Source: a virus
Taxonomy: Duplodnaviria > Caudoviricetes
Strand: one strand, 5' to 3'
Virus record (IMG/VR): IMGVR_UViG_3300034073_004285
Span: 1 to 58,859 of that record
DNA length: 58,859 nt
A program made the translations under genes and the position numbers. The stretch's first letter is position 1. Each line of letters starts with the position of its first letter. This document shows positions 861 through 53,566 of the stretch, one piece after another. Below the pieces are notes generated by a model that made no database searches, had not been told where the DNA came from, and saw only the letters and a program-made list of their open reading frames with translations.

Positions 861-1505
861 TTAGAAGTGCAATTCCTGCATTGCATCGTCAACAGCGGGG
901 AACTGTTGAGCGAAGATCTCGGATATAGCCAGCGCAATGTCACGGTGCTCCTTCTGGGTGGAAGGGTGACACCTGACTTGCAGGTAATGAATCCAAGAGC
1001 GAACCGAACCCTTCATGTAGAGCCGTGTCTGGGTGTTCAACGGCAGGAGCATTCGAGCGCACTCTTTGGCAATACCGTCTTCCAACGCCGCTTCGTAGCG
1101 GTCATAACAGAACTCCCAGACTTGCTCTTGCAGGTACAGGAAAGCGTCTTTCACCTCTGGGTCGAGGTCGTCAAAAGAGTTCTGCCTGTTTTTGCTGTCT
1201 TGCCGCCGTGCCTCGCAGGGCTCAAACTCCAGAGCTTCGGTGTACCGTAGGCTTCGCTCTTGGAAACAGAAGCTCCGATGGCGTAATATCTGAGCGGCGA
1301 TCGCCCTTGAGGTGACAATTTCCACAGTCATGTCGCACATCTCGAAAATTGACCAGTGCTTTTCACGGAGGCAGTATTTGAGCAAACCCACGTAATCGGG
1401 GTTGTCTTGGTTGGAGGAGGAAACCCTCGCACAGTAGGCGATCAATCCCTCGGGGGAGAGGAGATCGTCAACCGGCTTGGTGACTGAGATTAGTTGTACT
1501 TGCAT
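861..1505 (-). CDS. thyX: FAD-dependent thymidylate synthase
   Basis: [23 protein letters not shown] ThyX motif, [14 protein letters not shown]. Confidence 0.95.
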
Positions 1506-2526
1506 TGTTGATTTCCATAATTCTTTGATAGGCGATCGCCGCGCATTGGGGCACGACAGTATTGCCGAGGGCTTTTAGGCGTTTTTGGTAGTGGGGGATT
1601 CCGGTAGCGAGGGGACTGGGGTGATGTCCGTCCACCCAAGGGGATAACCTTGCATCTATTCCACAAATTCGGGGTTGAGTTGTCCCTTCACTTGGTTGGG
1701 GTCGGGTTGAAGGTTGCCGATCGCCGACTTGAGGGCTTTCCGTCCGGTGGCATTGTTGAACCGGGTTATCGTCCCCACTGAACCCCGATCGCCGTCCATT
1801 GCCTTGGGGGTTGGTAGAAGTCCCACCGCATGGGGTAGGTGCATTTGATGTCCATTGCGTAGATTGTTCAAAGCGTTGGAGGGGCTGTGTTTGCAATCCT
1901 GAGCTTTGGGCGTTGGGAGTAATGAAGTGCCGATCATTGCCTCCATCGTCTCCTTGTGAAATCCTTGATCGACTAAGGCTTGCGCCATGTCCCGGCTTCC
2001 ACTTCCCCCGCATAGTCCACGAGTTTGAGGGGTAGGCAATGATGAAAACCCGTTCCCTTTGGTGAGGCGCTCCCATGCTGGCCGCTGAAACAACTTGCCA
2101 TTCCGCATCAAACCCGCTTTGGGCAATTTCCCAGAGAACACGGTCAAGTCCCCGGTTAATAAGGGCTGGGACGTTTTCAAGCAATAGGAATCGGGGCTGA
2201 ACTGTGCGAAGGATTCGGACAACTTCAAAGAACAACCCAGATCGCTTACCTTCCAGCCCTCGCCCGTTGGGGTTGGCACTTGAAAGGTCTTGACAGGGAA
2301 ATCCGGCGGTGATGATGTCGAATTGTCCGTGGGTAGGAGAGAAAGTTGTAACGTCGTCATGAATAGGAACTCCATGAAAGTTTTTCTGTAGAACTCGCTG
2401 GCAGTAGGGGTCAATTTCCACAAATTGGGTGGTTTCTATTCCGAACCAACTAGCCGCCAAACTGAATCCACCAATGCCAGCAAAAAGATCGCACTGCCTG
2501 AGGTTTACCAGTTGCGCTGTGGGCAT
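1468..2526 (-). CDS. DNA cytosine-5 methyltransferase, alpha-type chain (motifs I-VIII and X)
   Basis: DLFAGIGG (I), GFPCQDLS (IV), ENV (VI), HQRERVF (VIII), [11 protein letters not shown] (X); motif IX is not in this frame. Confidence 0.92.
1656..2360 (-). CDS. Overlapping alternative-frame partner chain of the C5 methyltransferase (LPTP repeats and motif IX), interrupted by TAG
   Basis: Long nested ORF with three LPTP repeats ending LNPEFVE*. The frame continues MQGYPLGWT to TAA at 1575. Confidence 0.7.
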   Translation of the reverse strand: MTTLQLSLLPTDNSTSSPPDFPVKTFQVPTPTGEGWKVSDLGCSLKLSESFAQFSPDSYCLKTSQPLLTGDLTVFSGKLPKAGLMRNGKLFQRPAWERLTKGNGFSSLPTPQTRGLCGGSGSRDMAQALVDQGFHKETMEAMIGTSLLPTPKAQDCKHSPSNALNNLRNGHQMHLPHAVGLLPTPKAMDGDRGSVGTITRFNNATGRKALKSAIGNLQPDPNQVKGQLNPEFVE

Positions 2527-2792
2527 ACTTTCTCCACCTCTACCAACTGGTAGGCGTTGGATTCTAAGCGGACTATTACCTCTGCCCGCAAGAGGTTTCT
2601 GATTGTGTACTGGGCGTTATAGGGAGCCACTATTTTTTGGAGTTCCCGCAATGTCACCCGTTTTTTGCCGGACATATATTCCAAGATTTTTAACTCCTTG
2701 CGGATCTCTAGGTCTTTTTTGGTGAGGGCTTCACCGTCAAAAACCCCCTTGATCTTTTTGACATCTTTGTGTCGATAAATGGCAACCATCAC
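2505..2792 (-). CDS. Hypothetical protein, possible winged helix
   Basis: ILEYMSGKKRVTLRELQK...IRNLLRAEVIVR pattern; GGAGG RBS upstream. Confidence 0.55.
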   Translation of the reverse strand: MMVAIYRHKDVKKIKGVFDGEALTKKDLEIRKELKILEYMSGKKRVTLRELQKIVAPYNAQYTIRNLLRAEVIVRLESNAYQLVEVEKVCPQRNW

Positions 2793-2968
2793 GAGTCCTC
2801 CTTGTTGATTTCTTTAATGACATAAGTGGCGTACTCACCTGCCACTTTCCGCACAAACTCCGAGGGGGTGAGTTTGACGTAATAGGCGGCCAGCTCTATC
2901 CGTTGTTGTTCCCCTGCCGATAAACGCAGGGAAACCTGTTGGGTTAAACGTTGACTTGTTTTTGGCAT
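2789..2968 (-). CDS. Ribbon-helix-helix protein, 59 aa (not in the ORF track)
   Basis: Manual translation MPKTSQRLTQQVSLRLSAGEQQRIELAAYYVKLTPSEFVRKVA...; fills the gap in the operon with a GTGA overlap. Confidence 0.6.
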   Translation of the reverse strand: MPKTSQRLTQQVSLRLSAGEQQRIELAAYYVKLTPSEFVRKVAGEYATYVIKEINKEDS

Positions 2969-3210
2969 TTTTCTAATTGCTTACGAAACAAACCTAAGTG
3001 AACTGAATAATTGCGGCCTTGACGGCGAAAAGTCTTTTTGAACTCAGGGCGGGCTAACCGTTCCCTGATGAAGGTGGAACTGACTCCCAACCGACAGGCC
3101 GCCGACTTAACTGATTGCCAGCCATCGGCTTGGGCTTCGAGTGCCTCCACCCGCGCCAATAGCTGGTCAATTTGTTGTTGTTGAGTGAGGACTCTGGACA
3201 TAGCTACCAC
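2944..3210 (-). CDS. Excisionase-like HTH protein
   Basis: WQSVKSAACRLGVSSTFIRERL...RRQGRNYSVHL, Xis/MerR-like; early operon. Confidence 0.55.
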   Translation of the reverse strand: MVAMSRVLTQQQQIDQLLARVEALEAQADGWQSVKSAACRLGVSSTFIRERLARPEFKKTFRRQGRNYSVHLGLFRKQLEKCQKQVNV

Positions 3211-3428
3211 TCCACAGCCTGCCAGCCCCTTTCGTGGCAGTAACTACGCCACTGGGGATTCTTGTTTTGGAACCGCCGGAGCCAAACAGGAAAGGCTTGG
3301 CAGGCTTCACCGCCGACTTTCCAAATACCGAACTCTAGGCAGTCCGGTACAAAGTAGATCACCTCTTTTTTGCGCATTGACTGCACCAGTTGATGGCCGG
3401 GGTTGTGTTTAGGACGATCTGCAAGCAT
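3204..3428 (-). CDS. Hypothetical protein
   Basis: ORF tightly packed in the minus-strand early operon. Confidence 0.5.
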   Translation of the reverse strand: MLADRPKHNPGHQLVQSMRKKEVIYFVPDCLEFGIWKVGGEACQAFPVWLRRFQNKNPQWRSYCHERGWQAVEW

Positions 3429-3430
3429 GG

Positions 3431-3769
3431 TTAGAGTGATTGTTGATTTTTAAATTGGGGTTGGGTTTGGGGTGATTTGGGAGCAGTTAAAGCACGGTCA
3501 ATCAATGCAGGGCACAGCCGACGGCCGGCCAAGGCGATCGCCTTTGCAGATATTTCCTGATTGCGTGTGAACTGTTCGTACCATTGGGAGTTATCCCAGA
3601 GTGCCTGCTCTGTGGACTCCCGAAACCCGAACCCCATAGCGAGGTACTCACACTGGGACTGGGCGATCGCCTCTGCCCAAATAGGTAAGGCTTGGGCCAC
3701 CTGTGTGGTGGATAGGGTTAGAAAGTAGGTAGCGGTTAGAATTAGCTTTTTCATTGCATTAGGCTCCAT
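3431..3769 (-). CDS. Hypothetical exported or membrane protein
   Basis: MKKLILTATYFLTLSTTQVAQA signal-peptide-like N terminus. Confidence 0.55.
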   Translation of the reverse strand: MEPNAMKKLILTATYFLTLSTTQVAQALPIWAEAIAQSQCEYLAMGFGFRESTEQALWDNSQWYEQFTRNQEISAKAIALAGRRLCPALIDRALTAPKSPQTQPQFKNQQSL

Positions 3770-3978
3770 AGAATTACGGCGATCGCCGTTGGTAAGTTGA
3801 GCAGACAGGTAACACCGAGGATTTTTAGGTGGTTCATTTTGTCCCCATGTTTTTGAATGCTTGCCACCGCCGGATAGCAGTGTGGAATTGGTTCTGGATT
3901 ATGTCCAGTTCGCTTTTTTTGGGAACGGGGGGAAGGGTGGGCAATAAACGTGCGTAAGAAGTTTGCATTTAGAAGTCC

Positions 3979-4320
3979 TCAGGCTTTGAGTAGTAAGGTT
4001 TCGAGTTGTCCACTATCGGGATTGACAGCAATGATTTCGGCTGTAGTTGTTGGATAACTGGCATACCGTGGACTATTGACAATCCAAGAGTGCAAGCTTT
4101 GGTTTTTAATGGCTTGGCGTTTGATTGGGTTTAGGTGGTGTTCAGTTTCTATCCACCGCTTAACCGCTTCTGCCTCCCCCAAGTGAATACTTGAGTCAAC
4201 ACAATGGCCATCCACTAAAACCAGAAAATTATTAGTCCTTGAACTCTCGGCGATCGTGATTTTTGGGTTGTAAGTTGCATAACTGGGATCTAGTTCCTTG
4301 CGGCGTTTGGCATCTCCCAT
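3979..4320 (-). CDS. Hypothetical protein starting MGDAKRRK
   Basis: ATG at 4320 follows a GAGGA RBS, so it is the likelier start. Confidence 0.55.
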   Translation of the reverse strand: MGDAKRRKELDPSYATYNPKITIAESSRTNNFLVLVDGHCVDSSIHLGEAEAVKRWIETEHHLNPIKRQAIKNQSLHSWIVNSPRYASYPTTTAEIIAVNPDSGQLETLLLKA

Positions 4321-7206: not shown

Positions 7207-7488
7207 ATGTTTATGAATAGAGCCTTTAAGTTGACCATAGAGAAGTTCAACATCCGTGCCGTCGATATTGCTAGATCGAGTGGTGTGGCCGAGTCTGATG
7301 TGTCTAGGTTTTTGAACGGAAAAACAGATAGCGGGTATAAGAAGGTTGATAAGTTGATCTCCGCACTGCCTCCAACCGCCAAAGATTACTTTTGGCTGGT
7401 CTACAAAAGCGGGGATGCAGTTTTCGAGCAGGACTGCATCGATCGCCGTCTAGCCGTGTGTGAAAGCGGCGGAAAATACCATGCTTGA
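7207..7488 (+). CDS. CI-like XRE repressor without a peptidase domain
   Basis: IRAVDIARSSGVAESDVSRFLNGK HTH; co-oriented with and overlapping the integrase start. Confidence 0.78.
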   Translation: MFMNRAFKLTIEKFNIRAVDIARSSGVAESDVSRFLNGKTDSGYKKVDKLISALPPTAKDYFWLVYKSGDAVFEQDCIDRRLAVCESGGKYHA

Positions 7489-8524
7489 TCGCCTGAATGC
7501 CAAACTAGAGAGAGTGAAGATACGACAGAAAGGGAATAGACTGTATCTGCGGGCCACGCTACCAGCCCGCACAGGTACAGGAAAATGGAGCCAGACAGAC
7601 GTTAGAACAGGTTGCCCAGCCACCGAAACAGGATACAAGGCGGCATTCGGCAAAGCACAAAAATTAGAATCAGACCTAATATTAGAACGCTTCAACTGGG
7701 ACGACTGGCTAGGAGAAAAAGAGCAACAGTTGATCGTCCCCATCCACCGGAATATAGAAACCGCTATCCAAGCCTTCGGCGATCGCCATTGGGAGAGCAA
7801 CCCCAGAACCAAGGATAAGGAAAAGTATTACCACAACGACTATGGGATCGCCTTTAACCAACTGCCACTGGATGAACCTCTCACCGTGGAAGTACTGAGG
7901 AAAACACTGATCAAAAGCGAACCCGATACCAGAGCCAGACAGCGAAACCACAACGCCTATACCGCACTGGCCAAGTTTGCTGGCTTAGAACTGCCAGCGG
8001 ACTGGAAGAAACTAAAGGGGAACTATAAACCAGCACCCCGAACAATCCCCAGCGATGAAGAAATCCTAGCTGTGTGGGATAACCTCAGCGAGGGAAGATG
8101 GCGGTGGGCTTACGGCATGATGGCCGCCTATGGCTTGCGAAACCATGAACTTGCCAAAATCGATCTATCTCAGTTTCCAGTTCTGCGAGTCCTCCCAGAC
8201 ACCAAAACAGGGGAGCGTCTAGTCTATCCACTCCATAAACACTGGCCCGATCGCCTAGGGTTGGCAGAGTTCAACCCACCCCAGTATTCCGGCACCAGCA
8301 ACCGTAACAACGGCGATCGAGCAATCAAGGCTTTCCACCGATTAGGGATCGAGTTCACCCCCTACGCCTTGCGCCACGCCTACGCCATTAGAGGAGCCAA
8401 ATTAGGAGTCAGTCCGGCGATCGTGGCCAAGTGGCTGGGCCATAGCCTTAGTGTTCACCACAACACCTACAACCGCTGGATCTCCCAACTCGACTTTGAT
8501 AAGATTTGGGATCGGCTAGAATAA
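7481..8524 (+). CDS. int: Tyrosine integrase
   Basis: YGLRNHE (R), TKTG (K), LRHAYAIR, LGHS, C-terminal Y; ATG at 7481 overlaps the repressor stop. Confidence 0.92.
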   Translation: MLDRLNAKLERVKIRQKGNRLYLRATLPARTGTGKWSQTDVRTGCPATETGYKAAFGKAQKLESDLILERFNWDDWLGEKEQQLIVPIHRNIETAIQAFGDRHWESNPRTKDKEKYYHNDYGIAFNQLPLDEPLTVEVLRKTLIKSEPDTRARQRNHNAYTALAKFAGLELPADWKKLKGNYKPAPRTIPSDEEILAVWDNLSEGRWRWAYGMMAAYGLRNHELAKIDLSQFPVLRVLPDTKTGERLVYPLHKHWPDRLGLAEFNPPQYSGTSNRNNGDRAIKAFHRLGIEFTPYALRHAYAIRGAKLGVSPAIVAKWLGHSLSVHHNTYNRWISQLDFDKIWDRLE

Positions 8525-8662
8525 TGGCGATCGCCGTTAACGGATGGCAACCCTAGCTTTTGCGATATAAGCCTGTTAACGGGGCTAGGTGCGGAACGGG
8601 TGACGGCGATCGCCCCCAACGGGGAAGAATTAGGGAAGAGGGATAAGGATTTCTGAAAGTCA

Positions 8663-15378: not shown

Positions 15379-15408
15379 TTGATATCATCACACCGGTTGT
15401 GTTATATT
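15379..15408 (+). promoter_or_regulatory. Sigma70-type promoter of accessory island 1
   Basis: TTGATA-N18-TATATT with extended TG; a near-identical layout occurs at 16385-16414. Confidence 0.6.
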
Positions 15409-15438
15409 TATTTTATTGAAACAACCAACCACAAAACC

Positions 15439-16105: not shown

Positions 16106-16144
16106 AAAATCCCCGCTAACCAACCACGGAAAAGCGGGGATTTT
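16106..16144. terminator. Bidirectional intrinsic terminator with AACCAACCACGGA in the loop
   Basis: AAAATCCCCGC / GCGGGGATTTT 11-bp stem; near-identical copy at 17207-17246. Confidence 0.75.
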
Positions 16145-16190: not shown

Positions 16191-16379
16191 ATGACCCCCT
16201 GCCTTTACTGCAACCATCCTAAAACCCACAAGCACGGCGATCGCCGTTTCAAATGTCCCAACTGTGGCAAAACCTTCCGAGTAGATAAACTCTCGGAGAC
16301 GGGAAGGCCTGCGATCGGCGATCGACCCATGACGGGATATGAACGGCTGAAACGTTGCCTCAGAAAAAAAAATTCCTGA
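16191..16379 (+). CDS. InsA-like zinc-ribbon protein
   Basis: CLYC...RRFKCPNCGKTF followed by a basic GRP...ERLKR tail. Confidence 0.6.
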   Translation: MTPCLYCNHPKTHKHGDRRFKCPNCGKTFRVDKLSETGRPAIGDRPMTGYERLKRCLRKKNS

Positions 16380-16384
16380 CCCCC

Positions 16385-16414
16385 TTGTCAGTTTCACACC
16401 ACTTGCGTTATATT
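16385..16414 (+). promoter_or_regulatory. Sigma70-type promoter of accessory island 2
   Basis: TTGTCA-N18-TATATT; shares a CACACC box with the island 1 promoter. Confidence 0.6.
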
Positions 16415-16449
16415 TAAAGAGTCAAACAACCAACCACGGAGACAAAATT

Positions 16450-17206: not shown

Positions 17207-17246
17207 AAAATCCCCGCCAAACCAACCACGGAAAAGCGGGGATTTT
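17207..17246. terminator. Bidirectional terminator between island 2 and the tape measure gene
   Basis: Same 11-bp stem and nearly the same loop as 16106-16144. Confidence 0.75.
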
Positions 17247-42150: not shown

Positions 42151-42165
42151 AAAATAAATTTATAC
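42151..42165 (-). promoter_or_regulatory. Late-promoter-like motif GTATAAATTTATTTT
   Basis: Just upstream of the protease ATG at 42146. Confidence 0.55.
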
Positions 42166-43455
42166 AAGCCGCTTGATTTCCCGCTCTATCACGGCGATCG
42201 CCTTTTTGTAGGGCAGGTTTGGGGTAAAGCATTCCGTATCGCCACCACGCAACAGCAAAGGGAATAACATGGCTGGCTGTCTATAATGCCGAAACCGCTT
42301 CAATACCTTTTGCTCTATCTGGTATGCGTAAATGCCGGGGTCGATCTGCCATTCGTACCTTTCTTTGACAAATAATGCGTCTTTCCCAAACCTATCTTCT
42401 ATCGTGCTGTTAGTAATCCCAATCTTCCAAAATTCAGCAAAATCTTTTTGGAACCGAATAAAGTAAAGTATTCCAGGCTTGCCAAAGTTAAATCCATACT
42501 CCGCGCACTTGCAACACCCCTGCCCTCTTAGATGATTATTGGCTACCTGCTCAAATACTCCGTGTTCTGGGCAAATAACTTTAACCTTTTCTTTGTTGCT
42601 AGAGTACTCAACCAATGAATAGTCATATCGGTTGCCATGGACAATTACGGCTTCAGATATAAAATCCTCTGTTGTTTTCTGCGCCACCCCGGCACATTTA
42701 ATACAGCCACGCCCTTTAACGTGATCTTTTGGTGTTTGCTCAAATACACCATGATCGGGGCATATTATTTTGACCTTTTCTTTGTTGCCATAATACTCAA
42801 CCAATGAGTAGTCGTACTTGCCTCCATGAACTATGTTTGATTCATCAATAAATTCTTCAGTCGTCTTTTTCGCTGTCCCACCACATCTTGCACACCCATA
42901 ACTCATATGCTCACATGGAGATTGTTCAAATACGCCATGATCGGGGCATATTATCTTAACCTTCGCTCTTGCATTAATGTATTCAGTTAATGAGTAGTCG
43001 TACCTATATCCATGCACCGATTGCGCGGACTGAATAAAATCGTCTGTTGTTTTTGTTCTGGACTTAGCCCTTTGAAGTTTTCCACACTCGGTGCATCCTT
43101 TCCCCGCTAAATGACCGTTTGGCGTCTGGGCAAATATCCCATGATCGGGGCATATTATTTTGACCTTCTTGTTAGACTTTATATACTCAGCCATTGAATA
43201 GTCATACTTGCACCCGTGAACTAATAACGCATCGCGGATAAAGTCATCGGTATTTTTCCCTTTCCCTTGGCACTTAAGACACCCACTCCCTTGCAAGTGT
43301 CCATTGGCACACTGTTCAAACAATCCATGATCGGGGCAGATTATTTTTACCTTAAACTTTGCCTTGACATATTCAGTCTGGGAATAATCGTATTTGTGAC
43401 CATGTACGGATTGCGCCTCTTGAATAAATTGCGCTGTAGTCTTACACTTTTTCAT
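42160..43455 (-). CDS. Putative free-standing homing endonuclease: five DUF723-like Zn repeats plus GIY-YIG-like domain
   Basis: Five F...A..VHG.KYDYS..EY...KVKIICPDHG.F.Q...H..G.GC..C units; LYFIRF...WKIGIT...RF...GDTECF. Confidence 0.8.
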   Translation of the reverse strand: MKKCKTTAQFIQEAQSVHGHKYDYSQTEYVKAKFKVKIICPDHGLFEQCANGHLQGSGCLKCQGKGKNTDDFIRDALLVHGCKYDYSMAEYIKSNKKVKIICPDHGIFAQTPNGHLAGKGCTECGKLQRAKSRTKTTDDFIQSAQSVHGYRYDYSLTEYINARAKVKIICPDHGVFEQSPCEHMSYGCARCGGTAKKTTEEFIDESNIVHGGKYDYSLVEYYGNKEKVKIICPDHGVFEQTPKDHVKGRGCIKCAGVAQKTTEDFISEAVIVHGNRYDYSLVEYSSNKEKVKVICPEHGVFEQVANNHLRGQGCCKCAEYGFNFGKPGILYFIRFQKDFAEFWKIGITNSTIEDRFGKDALFVKERYEWQIDPGIYAYQIEQKVLKRFRHYRQPAMLFPLLLRGGDTECFTPNLPYKKAIAVIEREIKRLV

Positions 43456-43522: not shown

Positions 43523-45115
43523 TTACAATCTTTGCATCTGTTTTTTCCGTTTTCTAGGTAACCGTTTTTCCCTTGGTGGTGTTACTGGCTTAGGTTGATT
43601 TTCCTGCTGTGCGTCATCTGCCAAAATTGCCTCGGCATCCACTTCAATGGGCTCAAAATTGACACCATATTTTTTCTCTAACTCCATCTCCATTGCTTTC
43701 TCCCGAAGGATGTCCTCGTAATCAATCCCCTTTTCTGCCAAAAATCGGGTTCGAGTATTTACGCCCAGCGATATTTCAAGCTCTGTGGACTTCAGATCTT
43801 TTAGCGGGTCAACCCACGGCATAGAACTACCGCACCACCAATCACAGACATAATCTGCCTTGTTGAACTCGTAATCCCTGGGCATCGTAACAAAACCCGA
43901 CATTGCCGCCGCATCCAGCCAGTGCCGAAAAACAGGGGAGTTCAAGTCTGTATTCAGTCGATCCCGTAACAGTTTCACCCGCCGCCATTCGTTCAATTTC
44001 CCTTCACGCAAACTTGAATAATTAGCACTGCTCAAATCTTTATGAACTTGGTGGGCACTTAATCCCAAAATCCCTGCAATACTGCGCTGAAAATGCTGTG
44101 CAAAATCAACCAACTTGTCATTGGGGCTGGAAGCATCGAAGGGTGCTATTTTTTGCCCCGGCTGTAAATACTCAATCATGCCGGGATATAACTCTTTGCC
44201 CCACTGCCCCGATTCATCAATAAATTCCGGTTCGATGTCTGGAAATTCGGATTCTATAAAGACGGAAATAGCGGATTGCACTCGCGCTTTAACAATTTCA
44301 CTTTCTTCAAGCCCCAACAGGTTACGAGCTTTCAGTATGCCTGCATGGATCGCCGGAACTCCCCTAGTCTGCCCCGGACGCCATCCCTGACGGTTTACCA
44401 AGTGCAAAACCTGCCAAGCCGGAACGGGTTTAGACTGGAATCCTTGGGTTCTGGCACCGTAAAAGTCCCCAGGGTGATCTTCCAATAGCCAGTAATATTC
44501 TGGCCGTTTCCACTCGTTAACCTCCACCCCCATCCTGATCTCGTTACCGTTTTTTGCTCTAGCAAAATTTAGGCGATCATCCAACTGATCTACCTCGATT
44601 AACTCCAAGGCAAAAGGCACTGGGGAATCGTCAAAACGCTTACTCACCAACCGCACTAACACGCCGCCATCTACCAGCATTGAGTGCAAAACTGTTGCCT
44701 GCATTTCCCAGAAAGTCTGACGGCCCGCCGCATCACACCAGCTAGGATTATTGGCCCAACGGTTAAATTTCTTTTCAATTTCCTCATTTAGCCGTAAATT
44801 CAAACCGCCGCCGCGCTTCATTTGCACCTGACTTTGCAAGTGAATCCCTGTATCTACCACCAAAGAAACAAGTTCATCGATCGCCGTTTGAACGTTGGAG
44901 TCGTCCTGATAGAGGGAGCGACTCCTGGCGATTAGAAGTCGCAGACTACTCCAGATTTCATTGTCGGCACTGGTTTGGCCAACGTGCCAATCTAGGACAC
45001 CCGTTGTGTTAGTGCTAGCCCCTGCGTATTTGCGGATGCCATAGCTCCGCCCCTGTTTCTCTACAGGCAAGGGGATTTTAAATAAATTGGCGATCGCCGT
45101 TTGGAAGCGGTTCAT
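43523..45115 (-). CDS. Portal protein, lambda family
   Basis: ARSRSL, RPGQTRGVP, DLSSANYSSLR, WVDPLKD. Confidence 0.95.
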   Translation of the reverse strand: MNRFQTAIANLFKIPLPVEKQGRSYGIRKYAGASTNTTGVLDWHVGQTSADNEIWSSLRLLIARSRSLYQDDSNVQTAIDELVSLVVDTGIHLQSQVQMKRGGGLNLRLNEEIEKKFNRWANNPSWCDAAGRQTFWEMQATVLHSMLVDGGVLVRLVSKRFDDSPVPFALELIEVDQLDDRLNFARAKNGNEIRMGVEVNEWKRPEYYWLLEDHPGDFYGARTQGFQSKPVPAWQVLHLVNRQGWRPGQTRGVPAIHAGILKARNLLGLEESEIVKARVQSAISVFIESEFPDIEPEFIDESGQWGKELYPGMIEYLQPGQKIAPFDASSPNDKLVDFAQHFQRSIAGILGLSAHQVHKDLSSANYSSLREGKLNEWRRVKLLRDRLNTDLNSPVFRHWLDAAAMSGFVTMPRDYEFNKADYVCDWWCGSSMPWVDPLKDLKSTELEISLGVNTRTRFLAEKGIDYEDILREKAMEMELEKKYGVNFEPIEVDAEAILADDAQQENQPKPVTPPREKRLPRKRKKQMQRL

Positions 45116-45155: not shown

Positions 45156-45467
45156 CTAGACTTTTTCGAGTAAAACGCCTAGATCGTACTGGGAGAGCAC
45201 CTGAGCAATAATTTCTGTCACTTCCTCGGGGGAAACACTGGGGCGATCGATGATCTCGGTTAATTTGTCGATATTTTGCCGGCAGTAGGCTAGGAAAAAA
45301 TCGTCTAACTCGCTGATGGTTTTTTCGGCTTCGGCTTCGATAATTTTGGCCCGTTGATCTAGCTTGTGCCACAGGTACCTAAATATCTCCACCTGCACCG
45401 GCTTTAGGAATCCTTCCACCACAACGCCCAACGCTAAGCCGATTAGGATGCTGCAAATAGTTGCCAC
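45156..45467 (-). CDS. Hypothetical membrane-anchored protein
   Basis: N-terminal TM segment; GGAGGAG RBS; late-type motif GTATAAACCTAAGCT at 45492-45506. Confidence 0.6.
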   Translation of the reverse strand: MATICSILIGLALGVVVEGFLKPVQVEIFRYLWHKLDQRAKIIEAEAEKTISELDDFFLAYCRQNIDKLTEIIDRPSVSPEEVTEIIAQVLSQYDLGVLLEKV

Positions 45468-45507
45468 TGGTTTCTCCTCCGCTTTTTTCCTAGCTTAGGT
45501 TTATACG

Positions 45508-45537
45508 CAAAAAAATCCCGCCACTAGGACGGGTTTG
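45508..45537 (-). terminator. Intrinsic terminator closing the cassette array
   Basis: CCCG...CGGG hairpin followed by a T-run on the minus strand. Confidence 0.55.
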
Positions 45538-45541
45538 GGAG

Positions 45542-45658
45542 TTATTTGTTGCGGTTGAATTGTCGGTTACAGTCACGGCATAGCCACTGCTGTTTTCCTG
45601 ATTTGGCTACGCCGTTTTTGACTGTGTTTAGGCTGTTACAGTTTGGGCAGACTTTCCC
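45542..45658 (-). CDS. InsA-like zinc-ribbon extension of cassette 4, reached by -1 frameshift
   Basis: G GGA AAG heptamer at 45652-45658; -1 frame reads GKVCPNCNSLNTVKNGVAKSGKQQWLCRDCNRQFNRNK* with no start codon ahead of the first CxxC. Confidence 0.7.
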   Translation of the reverse strand, partial: GKVCPNCNSLNTVKNGVAKSGKQQWLCRDCNRQFNRNK

Positions 45659-46062
45659 TCAATTTTGCCGTATTCGGCATCTAACAACCGGCGCTTGTGT
45701 TGGTAGACTAACTCTTTAAAATCATTTTCAGATGTGACGATTTCAACTTTGATTAACGCCATAGAGTAAACATCTCCGTAGCTGACTACTTGAGCAATAA
45801 ACCGAGTGCCCGGGGGCAACTCGACTACGTTGCTCCACTCATAACCGCCTTTGTAATTTTTTTGACGGTTGTATTTCTCGTCTTTTCCGAGGGCGGAAGT
45901 GCCTCCAAGTTGCAAGGTTTCATCGCCTGTGACGGTTCCAGCAAAAATGCCGTCTTTATCGGTGGGGGGATAATCGCAAGCGATGGTTACAACTTCTCCT
46001 TTTTCTGTCACATATTGCCCAGATACTTGGGCATTGCCTGTTGCTTTTTTGATGCTTTTCAT
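45628..46062 (-). CDS. Accessory cassette 4, hypothetical protein
   Basis: Preceded by the 43-bp repeat. Confidence 0.7.
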   Translation of the reverse strand: MKSIKKATGNAQVSGQYVTEKGEVVTIACDYPPTDKDGIFAGTVTGDETLQLGGTSALGKDEKYNRQKNYKGGYEWSNVVELPPGTRFIAQVVSYGDVYSMALIKVEIVTSENDFKELVYQHKRRLLDAEYGKIEGKSAQTVTA

Positions 46063-46081
46063 TGACTTTCCCTATAGTTGA

Positions 46082-46124
46082 TTGGTTTACTTGCCCCTGA
46101 TTAGCGACAGAGGCGATCGCCGGT
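46082..46124. repeat. Inter-cassette repeat (HIP1, hairpin, leader), copy A
   Basis: 43 bp identical to 46402-46444. Confidence 0.9.
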
Positions 46125-46133
46125 TGGAGTTAA

Positions 46134-46379
46134 TTAAATAACGATATAATCACCGTCCAAAATCTGGTTTTTCACCTTTTCCCATACTGGATAGGCGGGC
46201 AAGACTTGCCACTTTGTGGCCTTGTCACGATCTTGAGTGACTACCGCAACGGTGCGGGTGTTGTTTTTGCGATATTTAATCGCCTCTTTAGTAACGGGGG
46301 ACGCTACTGCGGGTTTTATAACCCGGTAGCCATTATAGAAATAGTTTTGACCGCCGACTATGACTTGCATTACGTTCAT
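46134..46379 (-). CDS. Accessory cassette 3, hypothetical protein
   Basis: Bracketed by the two identical repeats. Confidence 0.7.
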   Translation of the reverse strand: MNVMQVIVGGQNYFYNGYRVIKPAVASPVTKEAIKYRKNNTRTVAVVTQDRDKATKWQVLPAYPVWEKVKNQILDGDYIVI

Positions 46380-46401
46380 GATTGTCTAACTTCCTTTGTG
46401 G

Positions 46402-46444
46402 TTGGTTTACTTGCCCCTGATTAGCGACAGAGGCGATCGCCGGT
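46402..46444. repeat. Inter-cassette repeat, copy B
   Basis: 43 bp identical to 46082-46124; a diverged third copy is at 46689-46740. Confidence 0.9.
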
Positions 46445-46449
46445 GTAGT

Positions 46450-46677
46450 TTAACCTAGATCCCATGTTGCAACAGTTTCGTCAGGGGACTCCCCTTGATG
46501 ATACTGGGCACTCCATTGATCAAATTTAATGTTTTGGTCGTTTAATATTTTTTCAAGGTCAGCAGTCGGGACACTGCTAGGGAAGGATAAAACTACTTTT
46601 TTGCCTTCGGTTTTGATTAAGATCTCGCCGCCCTGTACAGAAGCTACGGTTGTCCAGTCATTAGTTAAAGCGTTCAT
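46450..46677 (-). CDS. Accessory cassette 2, small acidic protein
   Basis: ATG after the AACCAACCACCGGAG leader. Confidence 0.68.
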   Translation of the reverse strand: MNALTNDWTTVASVQGGEILIKTEGKKVVLSFPSSVPTADLEKILNDQNIKFDQWSAQYHQGESPDETVATWDLG

Positions 46678-46742
46678 GATTATCTCCGGTGGTTGGTTGT
46701 TTGTAGTGCCATCCATTAGGCGGGATGGCGATCGCCGGTTAA

Positions 46743-47051
46743 TTAAATTTTGTGGGCAGGAATATACCCTGATTGATCACAATTTTTTACCCATTGCTTG
46801 ATTGCATATTCATCACTGACCTGCACTAGGGTTTCGCCATCGTCCCCCACTATGTATGCACCCGTCGCATAGGTATGCACCCCATTCCAAATGGAAACTT
46901 CCCCTTTAACCACCGTGCCACGCTTGCCTTGTGGGGGATGCAATTGGAAACGCAAGAAAAATGGGGAAGATCCTATTTTTTCGTTTTCGTCGTACAACAA
47001 AACGCCAATTGCTCCGGGTGTAAATTTGTAGTCTAGTTTAATTGCGTTCAT
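46743..47051 (-). CDS. Accessory cassette 1, hypothetical protein
   Basis: ATG after the AAACCAACCACAAGGA leader. Confidence 0.68.
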   Translation of the reverse strand: MNAIKLDYKFTPGAIGVLLYDENEKIGSSPFFLRFQLHPPQGKRGTVVKGEVSIWNGVHTYATGAYIVGDDGETLVQVSDEYAIKQWVKNCDQSGYIPAHKI

Positions 47052-47267
47052 GGCTTCATTCCTTGTGGTTGGTTTACTGGGTTGGGACTGTCCCCTCCAC
47101 CCATGAATCCAATATAATCCCCCATCCCTAGCTCTATCATGTCGTCTTGTGACACCTTTAAAACTGGCACACGATTTATTGACTTTTATGAAAACTGTGA
47201 TATAGAAGCAAAAACCCCCTATATAGTAGGGGGCTGAGTCCTTAGAGTTTACCTTTTCGTCCAAAAC

Positions 47268-47669
47268 CTAGTTTTTTTTTAGTTTACTAGCACCACCGGC
47301 AAACTTGCCTTTCAACCCACCGCCAGCACTTAACCCAGCTACACCACCGCCAGCCAGCTTAGCTTTTAGTTGCTCTAGGGCTCCGGTTAGCTCAGACTGG
47401 GGGACAGTCCCGGGCACTGGCAGATCGTTAAATTTTGCCATAAAGGCGTTTAACTCCTCGATTGAATTGACGGTAGGTAACTCCTCGACAGGAATAGTAA
47501 TACCGTATTGCCCTTGCAGAATCTCAGAATTGTAAATGTTCAAGAGTTCCTGAGCAGGCATATTCAAGGCTTCGTTGAACTTATCCTCGATACCCAACTC
47601 TTTGGCGTGTTTACGCAGTACCTCCGTGGCTTGGGCACGGGTTTGATCGTTGACAGGGGAAGCAGACAT
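47268..47669 (-). CDS. Hypothetical late protein
   Basis: Late-type motif GTATAAATCCACAAT at 47698-47712; GGAG RBS; followed by a hairpin at 47210-47236. Confidence 0.65.
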   Translation of the reverse strand: MSASPVNDQTRAQATEVLRKHAKELGIEDKFNEALNMPAQELLNIYNSEILQGQYGITIPVEELPTVNSIEELNAFMAKFNDLPVPGTVPQSELTGALEQLKAKLAGGGVAGLSAGGGLKGKFAGGASKLKKN

Positions 47670-50806: not shown

Positions 50807-51340
50807 TCATGGTGAAAACCTCGCTCTAGCGGTGCGAGAAATCCCTCGACTTCTGGCTTCTTCGTTTTGTACCCTTTGATACCAATAAGCCTCAGCTTTT
50901 TGTAACTCTTCTAAACTGCGATAAGTTACGCCCCTGCCTTCGATCTGATAACTAGAAACCTTGCCACTAGCTAGATCGGCGATCGCCTGCTGTATGCCGT
51001 CTAAAATTTTCTTGGCCATGGTGCGGCCATCATAAGGTTCATCTACCAGAGCGAGGTTATCTACTACCTGCAAGGTGCCGTTCCCAACAAACAGGACTTT
51101 GCCGGTGTCAACGTGAATTAGTCGGGCACTCCATTGGTATTGCCCTGGTAATGCGTCCTCAAAATCAGCCCCGTCAATCTCGGTGAGCCAGCCGGTGCCG
51201 TTGGCGGTGCTGGTGGTGGGGATAATTATGTTGCCAGCGATACTGACTTGGAGATCCCAATGGTCACTGGAATACTCCGTCAAACTACTCTCGAACTCTG
51301 TGGAAACGGCGATCGTTAATTCTTTGGGGATGTTCAGCAT
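50807..51340 (-). CDS. gpW-like head completion protein with N-terminal extension
   Basis: C terminus AIADLASGKVSSYQIEGRGVTYRSLEEL; follows terL; late motif at 51367-51381. Confidence 0.72.
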   Translation of the reverse strand: MLNIPKELTIAVSTEFESSLTEYSSDHWDLQVSIAGNIIIPTTSTANGTGWLTEIDGADFEDALPGQYQWSARLIHVDTGKVLFVGNGTLQVVDNLALVDEPYDGRTMAKKILDGIQQAIADLASGKVSSYQIEGRGVTYRSLEELQKAEAYWYQRVQNEEARSRGISRTARARFSP

Positions 51341-51375
51341 GGCGGCCAACCAAATAGATTGCCGCCATTGTGGAT

Positions 51376-53307
51376 TTATACGCCCCGCCCATAGCCGCTC
51401 AGGTAGCCCGATCGCCGTGGTGTTTTGCGGGTAGTAGTGCGAGGCCTCTGGGGTTCTGGAACGGGAAGGTTTAAGTCTTTTTCCGGTGTGGGTTCAGGTG
51501 TGGAGAGAGGATTGCTAACGCTCACTAATTGGCGCAACTTCTCCCAATGGGCGGCGTTAAAACGGTTTAAACCGACAAAAATGGCGGCGGCGTAGGCATA
51601 AACGGCACAGTCTAGGGGTTCATTTCGCACACCTGGTACCGGCTCCCAGACATACGCCCACTGTGCTCCTTTTTTCTTCTTGACTAACACCTCAGAGCCT
51701 GCCAATTCCTGACAGTAGCGAGGGGGAACGTTGACGGGTAGGTTCAGATATTTGGGGGACGGCTGTGCGATCCGGCACCGGCCAAGGAGAGTTTGTTTGA
51801 TTAAATCCACACCGAGGAGGTGAAGCTTAACCCCCTTTTTGATTGTCTTCCCTTGCCAATTGGTTTCCTGCCAAGTAGCGGGGGCAACTAACTTGCGATC
51901 GCCTTCCTTCCCTTTGACTACCATCCAAGCCTGCTTGCCACGGCTCCTGCCATAAACCTCTTGGGTGAGGTAGCCAGAATCCACCGCCGCCTTTTTAATT
52001 TTGATAGTGCCACCGAGGGGATGGTGGAACTCGTAGCCCAACACTTCCTCTAACTCCTGCCAAACCCCATCCCGACTTGGATCGCCGAACAAAACATCAT
52101 GGCGAATCAAGTAGCTTTGCTCTCCTTCCCCCCAGCCAAAAATGGACACCTCAATCCTGTCCCCTTGCACGTCTACCCCAGCAGTCAAGAGTAGAACACC
52201 TTCGGGAATTTGGCCCATCTGATAGTCAGAGTTTTCGGCTCGGTATTGCAGGTTTTCCCAGTCGAATTTGGTTTGCAAGTCGTGTTCATAGGGGAGTCCT
52301 AGTGACGTATTCCAAAACACTTGCAGACGGAGAGGATCACCGATCGCCGCTTCGTAGTCCCTAGCCACGTCCTCCCACGCTTTCCAAGGGGAGTACAACT
52401 CGTTAAGGTGGAAGCCAGCGATACTGCCTTTTCTTCCCTGTGCCTGCCAGTGGCCGGCCCTGAGCATTGTCAGTTTGTTGGTTTCTTCTATATCTGCTTG
52501 GCAATGCACGCACTCGTACCGCACTTCCTCAATATCAAACTTTTGCAAGTTCACGCTTCCTTTGTTTTTGTACTTCAACCCCTCCCACTTCAAGGTCTGA
52601 TACTCTCCACAGTGGGGGCAGGGTACTTGGTACTCACGGCGATCGCTCAGTAGCCAAAGCTTCTCTATTCGGCTTTTCCCTTGGATAGTGGGAGTGCTCA
52701 CCCAAATATGGATTTTATTCCAGAAAGTTGTAGTACGCTTTTTAGCTAAATTGACAGGATCACCTTCTGTACCCGCCGACTCTGGCCAGCGATCCAACTC
52801 ATCCCCAATCACCGCACGGATCGGACGGGAGGCGAGGGAGGCTGGGGAGTTGGCACCAGCAAGGGTAAGCACTCCTCCTGGAAACCGCTTGCTCAACAAG
52901 GTATTCCCCGAATCCCTAGACTGGGGTGGTTTTATTTTGTCGGCAAAACATTTGGAGTCCCGAAACATTGGCGCAAGGCGATCCTTGCTGAACGCCTCGG
53001 CCATTTCCAGAGTGGGGTTAATTGACAGAATAGGACATGGTTGGAGGTCAATCAAAAAACCAATCAGGCTTAAGACAACCGTACTCTTCCCCACCTGCGC
53101 ACTTGACATAATTACCACGTCTTCAATGGCGGGATCGGCGATAGCGTCTAACATTTCCCGCTGGTAGCAAGCACGGTCAAAATTGATCCGACCCGGTTCA
53201 GCACTAGCTTCGGGACTAAGGTGCATCCGTTGCTCTGCCCATTCGCTAGGCTTCCACCGCACTGGTGGGGCGATCGCCGTTGACGCTGAGGTGAGGAGGC
53301 TAGGCAT
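51376..53307 (-). CDS. terL: Terminase large subunit, lambda gpA family
   Basis: SSAQVGKS, DELDRWP, STPT, PCPHCG, AGVDVQ, RNEPLDCAVYA. Confidence 0.95.
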   Translation of the reverse strand: MPSLLTSASTAIAPPVRWKPSEWAEQRMHLSPEASAEPGRINFDRACYQREMLDAIADPAIEDVVIMSSAQVGKSTVVLSLIGFLIDLQPCPILSINPTLEMAEAFSKDRLAPMFRDSKCFADKIKPPQSRDSGNTLLSKRFPGGVLTLAGANSPASLASRPIRAVIGDELDRWPESAGTEGDPVNLAKKRTTTFWNKIHIWVSTPTIQGKSRIEKLWLLSDRREYQVPCPHCGEYQTLKWEGLKYKNKGSVNLQKFDIEEVRYECVHCQADIEETNKLTMLRAGHWQAQGRKGSIAGFHLNELYSPWKAWEDVARDYEAAIGDPLRLQVFWNTSLGLPYEHDLQTKFDWENLQYRAENSDYQMGQIPEGVLLLTAGVDVQGDRIEVSIFGWGEGEQSYLIRHDVLFGDPSRDGVWQELEEVLGYEFHHPLGGTIKIKKAAVDSGYLTQEVYGRSRGKQAWMVVKGKEGDRKLVAPATWQETNWQGKTIKKGVKLHLLGVDLIKQTLLGRCRIAQPSPKYLNLPVNVPPRYCQELAGSEVLVKKKKGAQWAYVWEPVPGVRNEPLDCAVYAYAAAIFVGLNRFNAAHWEKLRQLVSVSNPLSTPEPTPEKDLNLPVPEPQRPRTTTRKTPRRSGYLSGYGRGV

Positions 53308-53308
53308 T

Positions 53309-53566
53309 TTAAAACAAGATGTTAGAGTACATAAACTCACCCTCTTCAATGCACTGGCGGATATAGCAGGCGAGGTCTAGTATTTCAGCATAGGCATCGA
53401 CTAAACCCTTTCGCCCATTGCCCGCCTGCAACAAAGTCCCGTACTTTTCCAATCCAAACCGTTTCCTGTCCTCAATATCCTTGACAACCAAATCATGTAT
53501 AGATGGGTTGCTATTGGGTACGGGGTTAGGTTCAGGCACCGAATAATTCACGCAAACCTCACTCAC
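53309..53566 (-). CDS. Small helical protein, possibly MazG-like nucleotide pyrophosphatase
   Basis: RKRFGLEKYGT...NGR...DAYAEILDLACY acidic helix pattern; near dcd. Confidence 0.45.
   Translation of the reverse strand: MSEVCVNYSVPEPNPVPNSNPSIHDLVVKDIEDRKRFGLEKYGTLLQAGNGRKGLVDAYAEILDLACYIRQCIEEGEFMYSNILF

Follow-up and report, generated by a model that had tools for sequence, protein, structure and literature searches.

Repeated hairpin-leader linkers between unrelated small genes in an accessory operon of a HIP1-rich cyanophage

The virus record IMGVR_UViG_3300034073_004285 (Duplodnaviria; Caudoviricetes) contains an array of four small genes, g1 to g4, which are separated by three short spacers that each combine a HIP1 site, a hairpin and a leader in front of the next start codon. 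The complete stretch of 58,859 bp is called the window here. It has direct terminal repeats and a completeness rating of 100%, and 64 HIP1 octamers were found in it where 0.66 are expected. Since it is rich in HIP1 and complete with terminal repeats, the window is a cyanophage genome and not a prophage; an initial annotation made from the sequence alone had pointed to cyanobacterial prophages as the place to look for similar arrays. Annotation of the 73 called open reading frames (ORFs) with Pfam and PHROGs describes a siphovirus-like phage: besides the packaging genes and the RecT-family recombinase listed in Table 1, it encodes an HK97-type capsid protein, a tail protein of 4102 aa, DnaB, DnaN, ThyX, RNR-beta and PhoH, and a tRNA scan gave no match. 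Most HIP1 sites (57 of 64) lie within called ORFs; the seven others compare with the 6.5% of the genome that is outside called ORFs and thus represent a weak excess.

A four-gene unit among the packaging genes

Read along the minus strand, the locus consists of a terminator, a promoter, g1, spacer A, g2, spacer B, g3, spacer C, g4 and a second terminator (Table 1). The promoter is the only promoter-like site called on the minus strand between 45000 and 48400. Downstream of the array come a 103-aa ORF and the portal gene, and both carry a copy of another motif, GTATAAAT[CT]. Because the array has its own promoter and terminator and the following genes carry a separate motif, it is a promoter-to-terminator unit of the 'moron' type. 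It lies between the gpW-like gene on the terminase side and the portal gene, and, contrary to the initial proposal, not among early genes.

Table 1. Positions of the four-gene unit, its linker cassettes and further features of the window.
Feature	Position	Strand	Remarks
Terminator-like hairpin	47213..47235	-	9-bp stem, T-rich tail; ends upstream gene 47669-47268; upstream boundary of the unit
Sigma-70-like promoter	47111..47140	-	ATGATA, 18 nt, TATATT; 9/12 consensus matches; consensus match alone
g1 5' untranslated region (UTR)	47052..47103	-	predicted non-HIP1 stem-loop ~47103-47078, then AGTAAACCAACCACAAGGAA, leader motif 47074-47065, start codon
g1	46743..47051	-	102 aa, ORFan; only itself among 5.8 billion protein clusters
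Linker cassette A	46678..46742	-	TAATTAA stop context, HIP1 46735-46728, hairpin 46729-46708 (GCCAUCC / CGCCUAAU / GGAUGGC), leader 46698-46689, GGAG
g2	46450..46677	-	75 aa; small family, function unknown; 6 relatives at 35-59% identity
Linker cassette B	46380..46449	-	HIP1 46440-46433, hairpin 46434-46413 (GCCUCUG / UCGCUAAU / CAGGGGC), leader 46407-46398, AAGGAA
g3	46134..46379	-	81 aa, ORFan; nothing related among 5.8 billion protein clusters; enclosed by cassettes B and C, which are near-identical
Linker cassette C	46063..46133	-	TAATTAA stop context, HIP1 46120-46113, hairpin 46114-46093 as in B, variant leader AACCAATCAAC 46087-46077, AGGGAAAG
g4	45628..46062	-	144 aa, function unknown; two relatives at 76-77% identity
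3' module shared with G001	45542..45658	-	heptamer G_GGA_AAG 45658-45652 in g4 frame; InsA-type zinc ribbon 45652-45542 in -1 frame
Intrinsic terminator	45510..45533	-	CCCGTCCTAGTGGCGGG + T-run, stem 45533-45517; ends operon; 23/24 identical in G001
Promoter-leader cassette	15379..15438	+	TTGATA, 18 nt, TATATT ... AACAACCAACCAC; before 167-aa ORF
Terminator hairpin	16106..16144	+	AACCAACCACGGAAAA in 17-nt loop; -22.7 kcal/mol, z -7.25; 97.6% over 41 nt in G001; also in G002
Promoter-leader cassette	16385..16449	+	TTGTCA, 18 nt, TATATT ... AAAGAGTCAAACAACCAACCACGGAG; before GNAT-like ORF; close copies in G001 and G002
Terminator hairpin, second copy	17207..17246	+	leader motif in loop; near-identical to 16106-16144
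Portal, lambda-type	43526-45115	-	Pfam/PHROGs
gpW-like head-tail joining protein	50810-51349		Pfam/PHROGs
Large terminase (TerL), gpA-type	51379-53349		Pfam/PHROGs
RecT-family single-strand-annealing recombinase	55634-56371		

As the initial annotation had stated, the four ORFs are unrelated to each other (BLASTP, every pair E >= 0.64). Scored with the codon usage of the phage, each of them does best in its annotated frame only, with values of 0.19-0.29 against a small-ORF median of 0.165. Searches of g1-g4 with Pfam, PHROGs and PADLOC gave no match, the AlphaFold model of g4 (pLDDT 53.8) had no fold match with Foldseek at E <= 0.001, and the ESM Atlas model of g1 (pLDDT 0.39) had no usable match, so that the anti-defence role first suggested for these genes gains no support from domain or structure searches. 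The scan of viral contigs detected no member of the g2 family, and nothing was found with g4 and the portal protein in 185,579 species genomes. A metagenome match for g4 was discarded as a spurious DprA match on a bacterial contig. The 27.8-kb contig that encodes the g4 relative P0002 is absent from the viral contigs. When the N-terminal extensions assigned by gene callers to P0002 and P0003 were back-translated to read leaders, the ungapped scores did not exceed those of shuffled controls.

Morons, a concept from work on lambdoid phages, are accessory genes with their own promoter and terminator in phage late regions. The unit described here is similar, since a terminator, a promoter, genes and a terminator are placed between the gpW-like gene and the portal gene, and its genes probably have accessory functions. 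It differs in being a four-gene unit with repeated internal linkers, and the moron concept leaves these linkers unexplained.

The motif of the downstream genes, GTATAAAT[CT], occurs 11 times in the genome, and nine of the copies lie within 50 nt (20-50 nt) upstream of a called start; a rough expectation, estimated without a shuffle control, is about 2. Sites such as 8856(+), 15357(-), 31027(-), 36004(-), 45153(-), 45506(-), 47712(-) and 51381(-) precede structural and packaging genes, often directly after a terminator. The motif is also present before the portal gene of a related locus (L008) and in four copies on the gene strand of a related contig (G002), both of which are described below. 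It is probably the late promoter of the phage.

Linker cassettes with a covarying hairpin

The three spacers between g1 and g4 are 65-71 nt long and have a common anatomy. The stop codon is followed by 4-10 nt, CCGGCGATCGCC and a hairpin (NNNCUAAU) with a stem of 7 bp and a loop of 8 nt; then come 5-9 nt, the leader AACCAACCAC, a Shine-Dalgarno (SD) sequence and ATG. The extended HIP1 site and the stem overlap by three bases, with which the site ends and the stem begins, and the loop ends with CUAAU. The initial annotation had described a stem-loop, a leader and a ribosome binding site in front of every ORF, which applies to g2-g4, with the leader of g4 being the variant AACCAATCAAC, whereas g1 is preceded by leader and SD but by no HIP1 hairpin. 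The stem-loop predicted in the 5' UTR of g1 is statistically unremarkable (z +1.29), and a 16-nt block of this UTR, TTGTGGTTGGTTTACT, recurs unchanged in spacer B.

Spacers B and C are identical in 45 of 46 positions of a common block, with an exact run of 43 nt as reported initially, and the Logan assembly graph collapses exactly this 43-mer. Spacer A is only 63% identical to the same block; it retains the HIP1 site, the 7-bp stem and the CTAAT loop end while both stem strands are changed, again as first described. Moreover, the spacers form a mosaic of shared blocks: A and C have the stop context ATTTAATTAAC in common, B, which is without the TAATTAA block, shares its hairpin with C, the g1 leader and B share AGTAAACCAACCACAA (16-nt identity), and AATCATGAACG, which spans the start codon, is common to A and B (ATGAACG start). 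Judged from the sequence, the array forms a self-contained operon of accessory genes in the complete genome of a HIP1-rich cyanophage, and its three spacers are copies of one linker cassette.

No promoter-like or terminator-like consensus was called on the minus strand of spacers A, B and C. The stem is followed by AAGUAAACC or ACUACAAAC, without a T-run, and an intrinsic terminator was ruled out for the spacer hairpin since a U-tract after the stem is missing. With Rfam there was no match at the gathering score over the whole window and none at E <= 1 over 45400-47300. Many cyanobacterial promoters are without a -35 box, and a 5'-terminal hairpin is a classic mRNA stabiliser. Each spacer might be a unit similar to the promoter early stem-loops (PeSLs) of other phages, with the AT-rich stop region (TAATTAAC; TTATAAC in the phage G001) as a -10-only promoter and the hairpin at the primary 5' end, so that every gene would have a transcript of its own. 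In A, C and G001, an AT-rich hexamer does precede the HIP1 site by 2-9 nt. However, the consensus scan called no promoter-like site in any spacer, the TAATTAA block is missing from B, and the recognisable promoters of the phage use TATATT or GTATAAAT; we therefore regard such a promoter as improbable.

A relaxed structural pattern (HIP1, GCC, 7 nt, CTAAT, 4 nt, GGC) identified exactly one other record in IMG/VR, G001 (37.5 kb, 56% complete), while the strict cassette pattern with a CCGG prefix gave no match. The stems are GCCTCTG/CAGGGGC in B and C, GCCATCC/GGATGGC in A and GCCACCC/GGGUGGC in G001. In the alignment of the four copies all 28 cells are paired; four of the seven stem pairs are changed on both sides, and the three invariant pairs are the GCC/GGC base common to HIP1. 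When the partner strand was slid by 1-3 columns as a control, 32-50% of the cells were paired and no double change was seen, and 2 of 500 shuffles reached the observed covariation score. The initial annotation had taken the compensatory change as a sign of a selected structure, and with a third stem variant from G001 this view is strengthened: it is the covariation, and not the folding energy, that supports the hairpin as a selected structure. The 3' half of the loop, CUAAU, is kept in all four copies. A genome scan for stems of at least 6 bp with a loop ending in CTAAT found six hairpins, three of them in the array (mononucleotide shuffles: mean 1.98, maximum 7). In 118.8 kb of the four phage records, the covariance model R1, built from the hairpin cassette copies, gave 76-89 bits for the four copies, and no other site scored higher than 20 bits.

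The compensatory changes in A and G001, and the conservation of the cassette in a second phage with other cargo, also argue against the spacers being functionless leftovers of a recent local duplication. The 45/46 identity of B and C would be expected from such an event, but we consider this explanation the least probable of all.

B and C contain a U-G pair that would become a C-A mismatch on the opposite strand; this favours RNA of the sense strand as the form in which the hairpin acts and agrees with the initial suggestion of an RNA element. A different proposal is that the hairpin acts in single-stranded DNA as the site of a site-specific recombinase, on an integron-like or HIP1-dependent platform. 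The array of promoterless ORFs with imperfect inverted repeats between them resembles the cassette arrays of integrons, and a link between HIP1 and excision is known from older work. A tyrosine-recombinase/integrase-like ORF is also present at 7460-8521, although it is weak (22.7 bits, under the Pfam cut-off of 27.1). Excision and recombination have been linked to HIP1 in PMC5861425, 10.1101/2024.09.10.611283 and PMC4390886. On the other hand, attC is an imperfect palindrome of 57-141 nt with R/L boxes and an adjacent IntI, whereas the element here has a 7-bp stem, about 22 nt and no extrahelical bases, and lacks an adjacent integron-type integrase, the sole recombinase-like ORF being 37 kb away. 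In addition, the G-U pair suits RNA better than DNA, and HIP1 is located outside the variable part of the stem and mostly within genes. A DNA site is accordingly a poor candidate, even more so than the -10-only promoter.

Leaders, terminator hairpins and gene content in related phages

The leader AACCAACCAC has seven exact copies in the genome versus 0.25 expected, a number reached by none of 100 shuffles, and all seven are oriented along the local genes. Five copies lie 6-22 nt before a start codon and two in terminator loops; three are in the array. Two copies follow the -10 box of strong promoter-like sites (10/12 matches) at a distance of 13-14 nt. These sites, located at 15.4 and 16.4 kb, stand at the head of a second accessory cluster on the plus strand (15.4-17.2 kb). 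The same leader thus follows promoters as well as hairpin cassettes, so that the downstream cistrons of the array receive the 5' leader of primary transcripts. Base-pairing between the leader and the 16S rRNA 3' end was considered and discarded on grounds of geometry. A search with the leader + GGAG pattern returned seven unrelated loci in phages other than cyanophages, with ATG 6-7 nt after GGAG in five of them, which suggests a generic C/A-rich leader design and no kinship.

Besides the two in the window, promoter-leader cassettes are located at L026 790-850 and 1085-1146 (+). All of them have a -35 box, 17-18 nt, TATATT and AAAGAGTCAAA..ACAACCAACCAC, and they precede unrelated small ORFs in accessory clusters that oppose the direction of the flanking virion genes. 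The hairpin with the leader in its loop was found at 16106-16144 and 17207-17246 (+) in the window, at 20696-20656 (-) in G001 and at 1412-1442 (+) in L026. The stem is identical in these four copies from three phages, the loop of 17-18 nt consists of the leader motif and GGAAAA, and the hairpin starts at the stop codon of whichever ORF precedes it. A U-tract follows in the window, making it terminator-like, and none in G001. Downstream of this hairpin, free-standing small genes for InsA-like zinc ribbons (47% identical) lie at 16191-16379 (+) in the window and 1470-1679 (+) in L026. A distinct conserved 5' UTR element belongs to the KilA-N gene (window 34700-34585 (-), L022 17255-17146 (-)): in both phages HIP1 directly follows the upstream stop, and a G/C-rich hairpin (GCCCCCCAG.. 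/ GCCCCCTG..) precedes the SD.

It might be asked whether the leader in the terminator loop is a decoy for a leader-binding factor. More generally, hairpin and leader could be a protein binding site or decoy, serving a translational repressor, a stoperator-like roadblock or a CRISPR-repeat RNA mimic that soaks up Cas6-type enzymes. The preserved CUAAU half of the loop, the display of the leader in the loops of four terminator hairpins and the size of stem and loop, which is that of a CRISPR-repeat hairpin, would be compatible with this, and cyanobacterial CRISPR repeats can hold HIP1-like cores (PMC6604393). In Synechocystis, however, CGATCG sits in the loop and not 5' of the stem (PMC6604393), and the sites occur in two accessory clusters and not across lytic operons, unlike stoperators. 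We consider a binding site or decoy very improbable.

The second record with a hairpin cassette, G001, is a different phage. Seven of its 49 called ORFs match window proteins, namely RNR-beta (62% identity), ThyX (66%), dCTP deaminase (65%), DnaN (45%), two KilA-N proteins (~51%) and, marginally, a tail protein; its virion and structural genes are unrelated to those of the window. The G001 operon, on the minus strand, begins with a promoter region, AAAGAGTCAACAAAACAACCAACCAC and the ATG of X1 (74 aa), which ends with TAA. Downstream of X1 lie a leader-in-loop hairpin, 97.6% identical over 41 nt to the terminator hairpins of the window and without U-tract, then GGCGATCGCC, the hairpin GCCACCC / CGCCUAAU / GGGUGGC, ACAACCAACCAC, an SD and the ATG of X2 (91 aa). 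The operon closes with a 3' module and a terminator, which match the last part of the window operon with 76% identity over 149 nt. The hairpin cassette is identical to spacer A in 30 of 32 positions, and the two differences form a compensatory change from U-A to C-G.

X1 and X2 are unrelated to g1-g4. At this locus, window and G001 are homologous in the cassettes and in the 3' module but not in the enclosed cargo, and the homology starts and stops at the cassette edges. A fixed gene content combined with an unconserved hairpin would have spoken against the initial annotation, and the opposite was observed: leader, hairpin cassette and operon 3' end are kept around different ORFs. The cassettes are 94-98% identical across phages, compared with 64-69% (nt) and 45-66% (aa) for the shared genes; the distance between the two phages is too great for single events to be mapped. 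An alignment of the g1 promoter with the G001 promoter (17/30 by eye) was not reported by blastn-short, and no claim is made for it.

Two further relatives were identified with other parts of the region. L008 is the sole IMG/VR locus retrieved by a search with the portal protein (58%), and G002 (11.3 kb) was found by a scan with the leader-in-loop hairpin. TerL, the gpW-like protein and the portal protein of G002 are 66%, 53% and 50% identical to those of the window, and two tandem promoter-leader cassettes and a leader-in-loop hairpin surround yet other ORFs there. The interval from the gpW-like gene to the portal gene contains different genes in the window and in G002, and the 8.8 kb between TerL and portal in L008, where no gpW-like gene was identified, are different again. 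The interval between the gpW-like gene or TerL and the portal gene is a hot spot of variable content in all three lineages. In L008, an IS200/IS605 pair (TnpB-like OrfB and Y1 transposase, Pfam-confirmed) is located at 2541-4193, just after the terminase gene. The lineage is sparsely sampled: GenBank phages contained no match for the region, the best TerL match there being 42%, and searches of GenBank phages and PLSDB plasmids with the cassettes gave chance-level matches alone. A literature search confined to Creative Commons PMC and bioRxiv yielded no publication containing these motifs.

The 3' module shared with G001 (G001 20342-20223, corresponding to L023 2342-2223 (-)) begins exactly at a zero-frame heptamer, G_GGA_AAG in g4 and A_AAA_AAG in X2. 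In the -1 frame 36-37 codons are open, without a start codon and with a stop 2-4 codons upstream, and this frame matches Pfam Zn_ribbon_InsA with 29.1 bits (cut-off 26.1). Window and G001 differ at 28 of 114 nt, distributed 10/4/14 over the zinc-ribbon codon positions, and synonymous to non-synonymous codon differences are 11:11 in the zinc-ribbon frame versus 6:15 and 2:20 in the other frames. Since this substitution pattern favours the zinc-ribbon frame, the frame appears to be translated. The module is a candidate for programmed -1 frameshifting that would append a zinc ribbon to unrelated N-terminal proteins; the stem downstream of the heptamer is weak.

Three observations at other sites should be mentioned. 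The 24-nt terminator of the operon recurs exactly at L028 2001-2024 (-), on an unrelated high-GC phage contig, where it closes a stretch of about 300 nt without an obvious ORF and without an Rfam match; a chance origin of this match (23 specified bases) is unlikely. At 8524-8553, between the convergent integrase-like ORF and the next gene, HIP1 adjoins a 10-bp palindrome (CCGTTAACGG), which may be a bidirectional terminator or an attachment-site candidate. In the portal-capsid interval, a 431-aa ORF (42163-43455 (-)) matches treble-clef zinc-finger, DUF723 and, weakly, T5orf172; it may be a homing-endonuclease-like insertion.

A proposed role as RNA linkers and in gene exchange, and known systems

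We propose that the cassettes are intercistronic linkers acting at the RNA level, in mRNA stability or processing and in providing standard translation starts, and that they also serve as homology patches for the swapping of ORFans in a PeSL-like manner. We assign this combined reading a probability of roughly 55%. In the mRNA, the hairpin would have an insulating role in stability or processing. Cleavage might take place in the AU-rich stop region and leave the hairpin as a protective 5' stem of the downstream cistron; alternatively, it might protect the 3' end of the upstream cistron. The C/A-rich leader would offer an unstructured, open landing site for the ribosome, as at the promoter-proximal accessory genes. 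According to PMC8682795, cyanobacterial RNase E prefers single-stranded A/U-clamp sites, operon discoordination has been connected with intergenic RNase E sites, and decay by exonucleases is hindered by structured 5' ends. We infer that the AU-rich stop region 5' of the hairpin could present such preferred sites.

For the second part of the proposal, the cassettes would be short homology patches for the gain, loss and exchange of accessory genes, plausibly with the help of an annealing recombinase of the RecT type. The initial annotation had named Bet or HIP1-linked recombination in this role. A single-strand-annealing recombinase gene is indeed present, but it belongs to the RecT family and is not Bet, and recombination driven by HIP1 gains no support. 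Members of one cassette family are found next to different ORFans in cyanophages that are otherwise unrelated, and for this reason we regard the cassettes also as homology patches. Furthermore, the position of the ORFan g3 between the near-identical B and C is the pattern that circle recombination at the cassette would leave, as in the model for PeSLs (PMC2839356).

Several observations weigh against this proposal. The four hairpin copies come from two phages, and B and C are effectively one variant, so that the covariation is based on three independent stems. The folding energies of the whole spacers are unremarkable (z -2.3, -0.65 and -0.62). L008 and G002, the closest phages by portal protein, contain no hairpin cassette in their available parts. 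The high identity of the cassettes between phages could result from purifying selection by a shared host factor and not from exchange, and the cassette may be a host-derived repeat. Deletion variants, which the initial annotation had suggested looking for, were searched in Logan contigs of four runs from one study, possibly the source sample, whose unitigs break at the 43-nt repeat: no joint was present in the array, the unitig depth of g3 was about that of its flanks, and no recombination product was seen in these assembled contigs, which are blind to rare variants. None of the listed runs that hold the stretch is on record as RNA.

These points bear on an alternative without any exchange, in which the cassettes are purely RNA regulatory and were inherited or independently retained by window and G001, their sequence is kept by strong purifying selection through a host or phage factor that reads it exactly, and the cargo is brought in by illegitimate recombination elsewhere. 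Covariation and the asymmetry in favour of the sense strand would agree with it, the identical stem of the terminator hairpin in four copies from three phages suggests sequence-specific reading, and the contigs contained no recombination product. It does not readily account for homology boundaries between window and G001 that coincide with the cassette edges, for cassettes far better conserved than the shared genes, or for window spacers that are mosaics of one another. We consider it unlikely, though a more serious competitor than the promoter, DNA-site, protein-site and duplication explanations discussed above.

A more far-reaching version of our proposal is that HIP1-rich cyanophages with unrelated virion modules exchange a common integrase-free linker toolkit, made up of promoter-leader cassettes, HIP1-hairpin-leader cassettes and terminator hairpins with the leader in the loop. 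Incoming ORFs would be insulated, stabilised and translated by these parts, crossovers would depend on RecT, and a single RNA-binding factor of host or phage would read hairpin and leader. We put this forward only tentatively, as a doubtful extension that seems slightly better placed than the purely regulatory alternative.

Of the published systems, the PeSLs of T4-type phages (PMC2839356; PMC4122927) are similar in being short conserved regulatory cassettes with a stem-loop, located in hyperplastic regions, flanking ORFans and shared around different genes. A variable region with ORFans next to the cassettes is also found here, as the content upstream of the portal gene differs in the window, L008 and G002, and g1 and g3 have no relatives; the repeats flanking g3 fit the circle-integration model of PMC2839356. 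According to these reports PeSLs contain a strong sigma-70 promoter and a terminating stem-loop, whereas the spacers described here have neither consensus, lie inside one operon and carry HIP1 and a start-proximal leader; moreover, they belong to siphovirus-like cyanophages with RecT and not to T4-type myoviruses. Since strong promoter and terminator stem-loop are both lacking, the cassette is not a PeSL. In a study on cyanomyoviruses the PeSL mechanism was judged unlikely for those phages (PMC4503421).

The start-associated sequences (SAS) and extended SAS (ESAS) of Cluster K mycobacteriophages (PMC3203893) are likewise asymmetric repeats that occur in one orientation just upstream of some starts, comparable to the 7/7 orientation of the leader here. 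There, an inverted repeat lies directly upstream in about half of the copies, the upstream stop is sometimes inside, and the function is described as unknown but is thought to be translational (PMC3203893). The SAS includes the SD, whereas here the motif is located 5' of separate, variable SDs (GGAG, AAGGAA, AGGGAAAG). The ESAS has 17-bp inverted repeats, its arms are described without covariation and DNA binding is favoured (PMC3203893), compared with 7-bp arms and four covarying pairs here. There is no sequence similarity between SAS/ESAS and the cassette.

Intercistronic hairpins that set the stability or processing of mRNA include the early RNase III sites of T7 and the repetitive extragenic palindromic (REP) stabilisers in E. 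coli operons. The cassette is similar to them, as a stem-loop is placed between cistrons, a U-tract is lacking and the position fits the end of a processed fragment. The 7-bp stem is too short for RNase III, however, and the element is no member of the REP family. Operon discoordination by RNase E in Synechocystis (PMC8682795) is a related intercistronic case.

How phages acquire, test and discard ORFans is poorly understood outside the T4-type phages, in which PeSLs are the only well-described cassette mechanism. The linkers described here would represent a comparable but structurally different system in siphovirus-like cyanophages, consisting of intercistronic cassettes with a covariation-supported hairpin and a standard leader. 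If this is true, the covariance model would be a search key for hot spots of accessory genes in cyanophage metagenomes, the cassettes would be natural, compact parts that could be moved between cyanobacterial operons to insulate genes and have them translated, and the array would offer a concrete place to examine whether HIP1 sites are involved in exchange.

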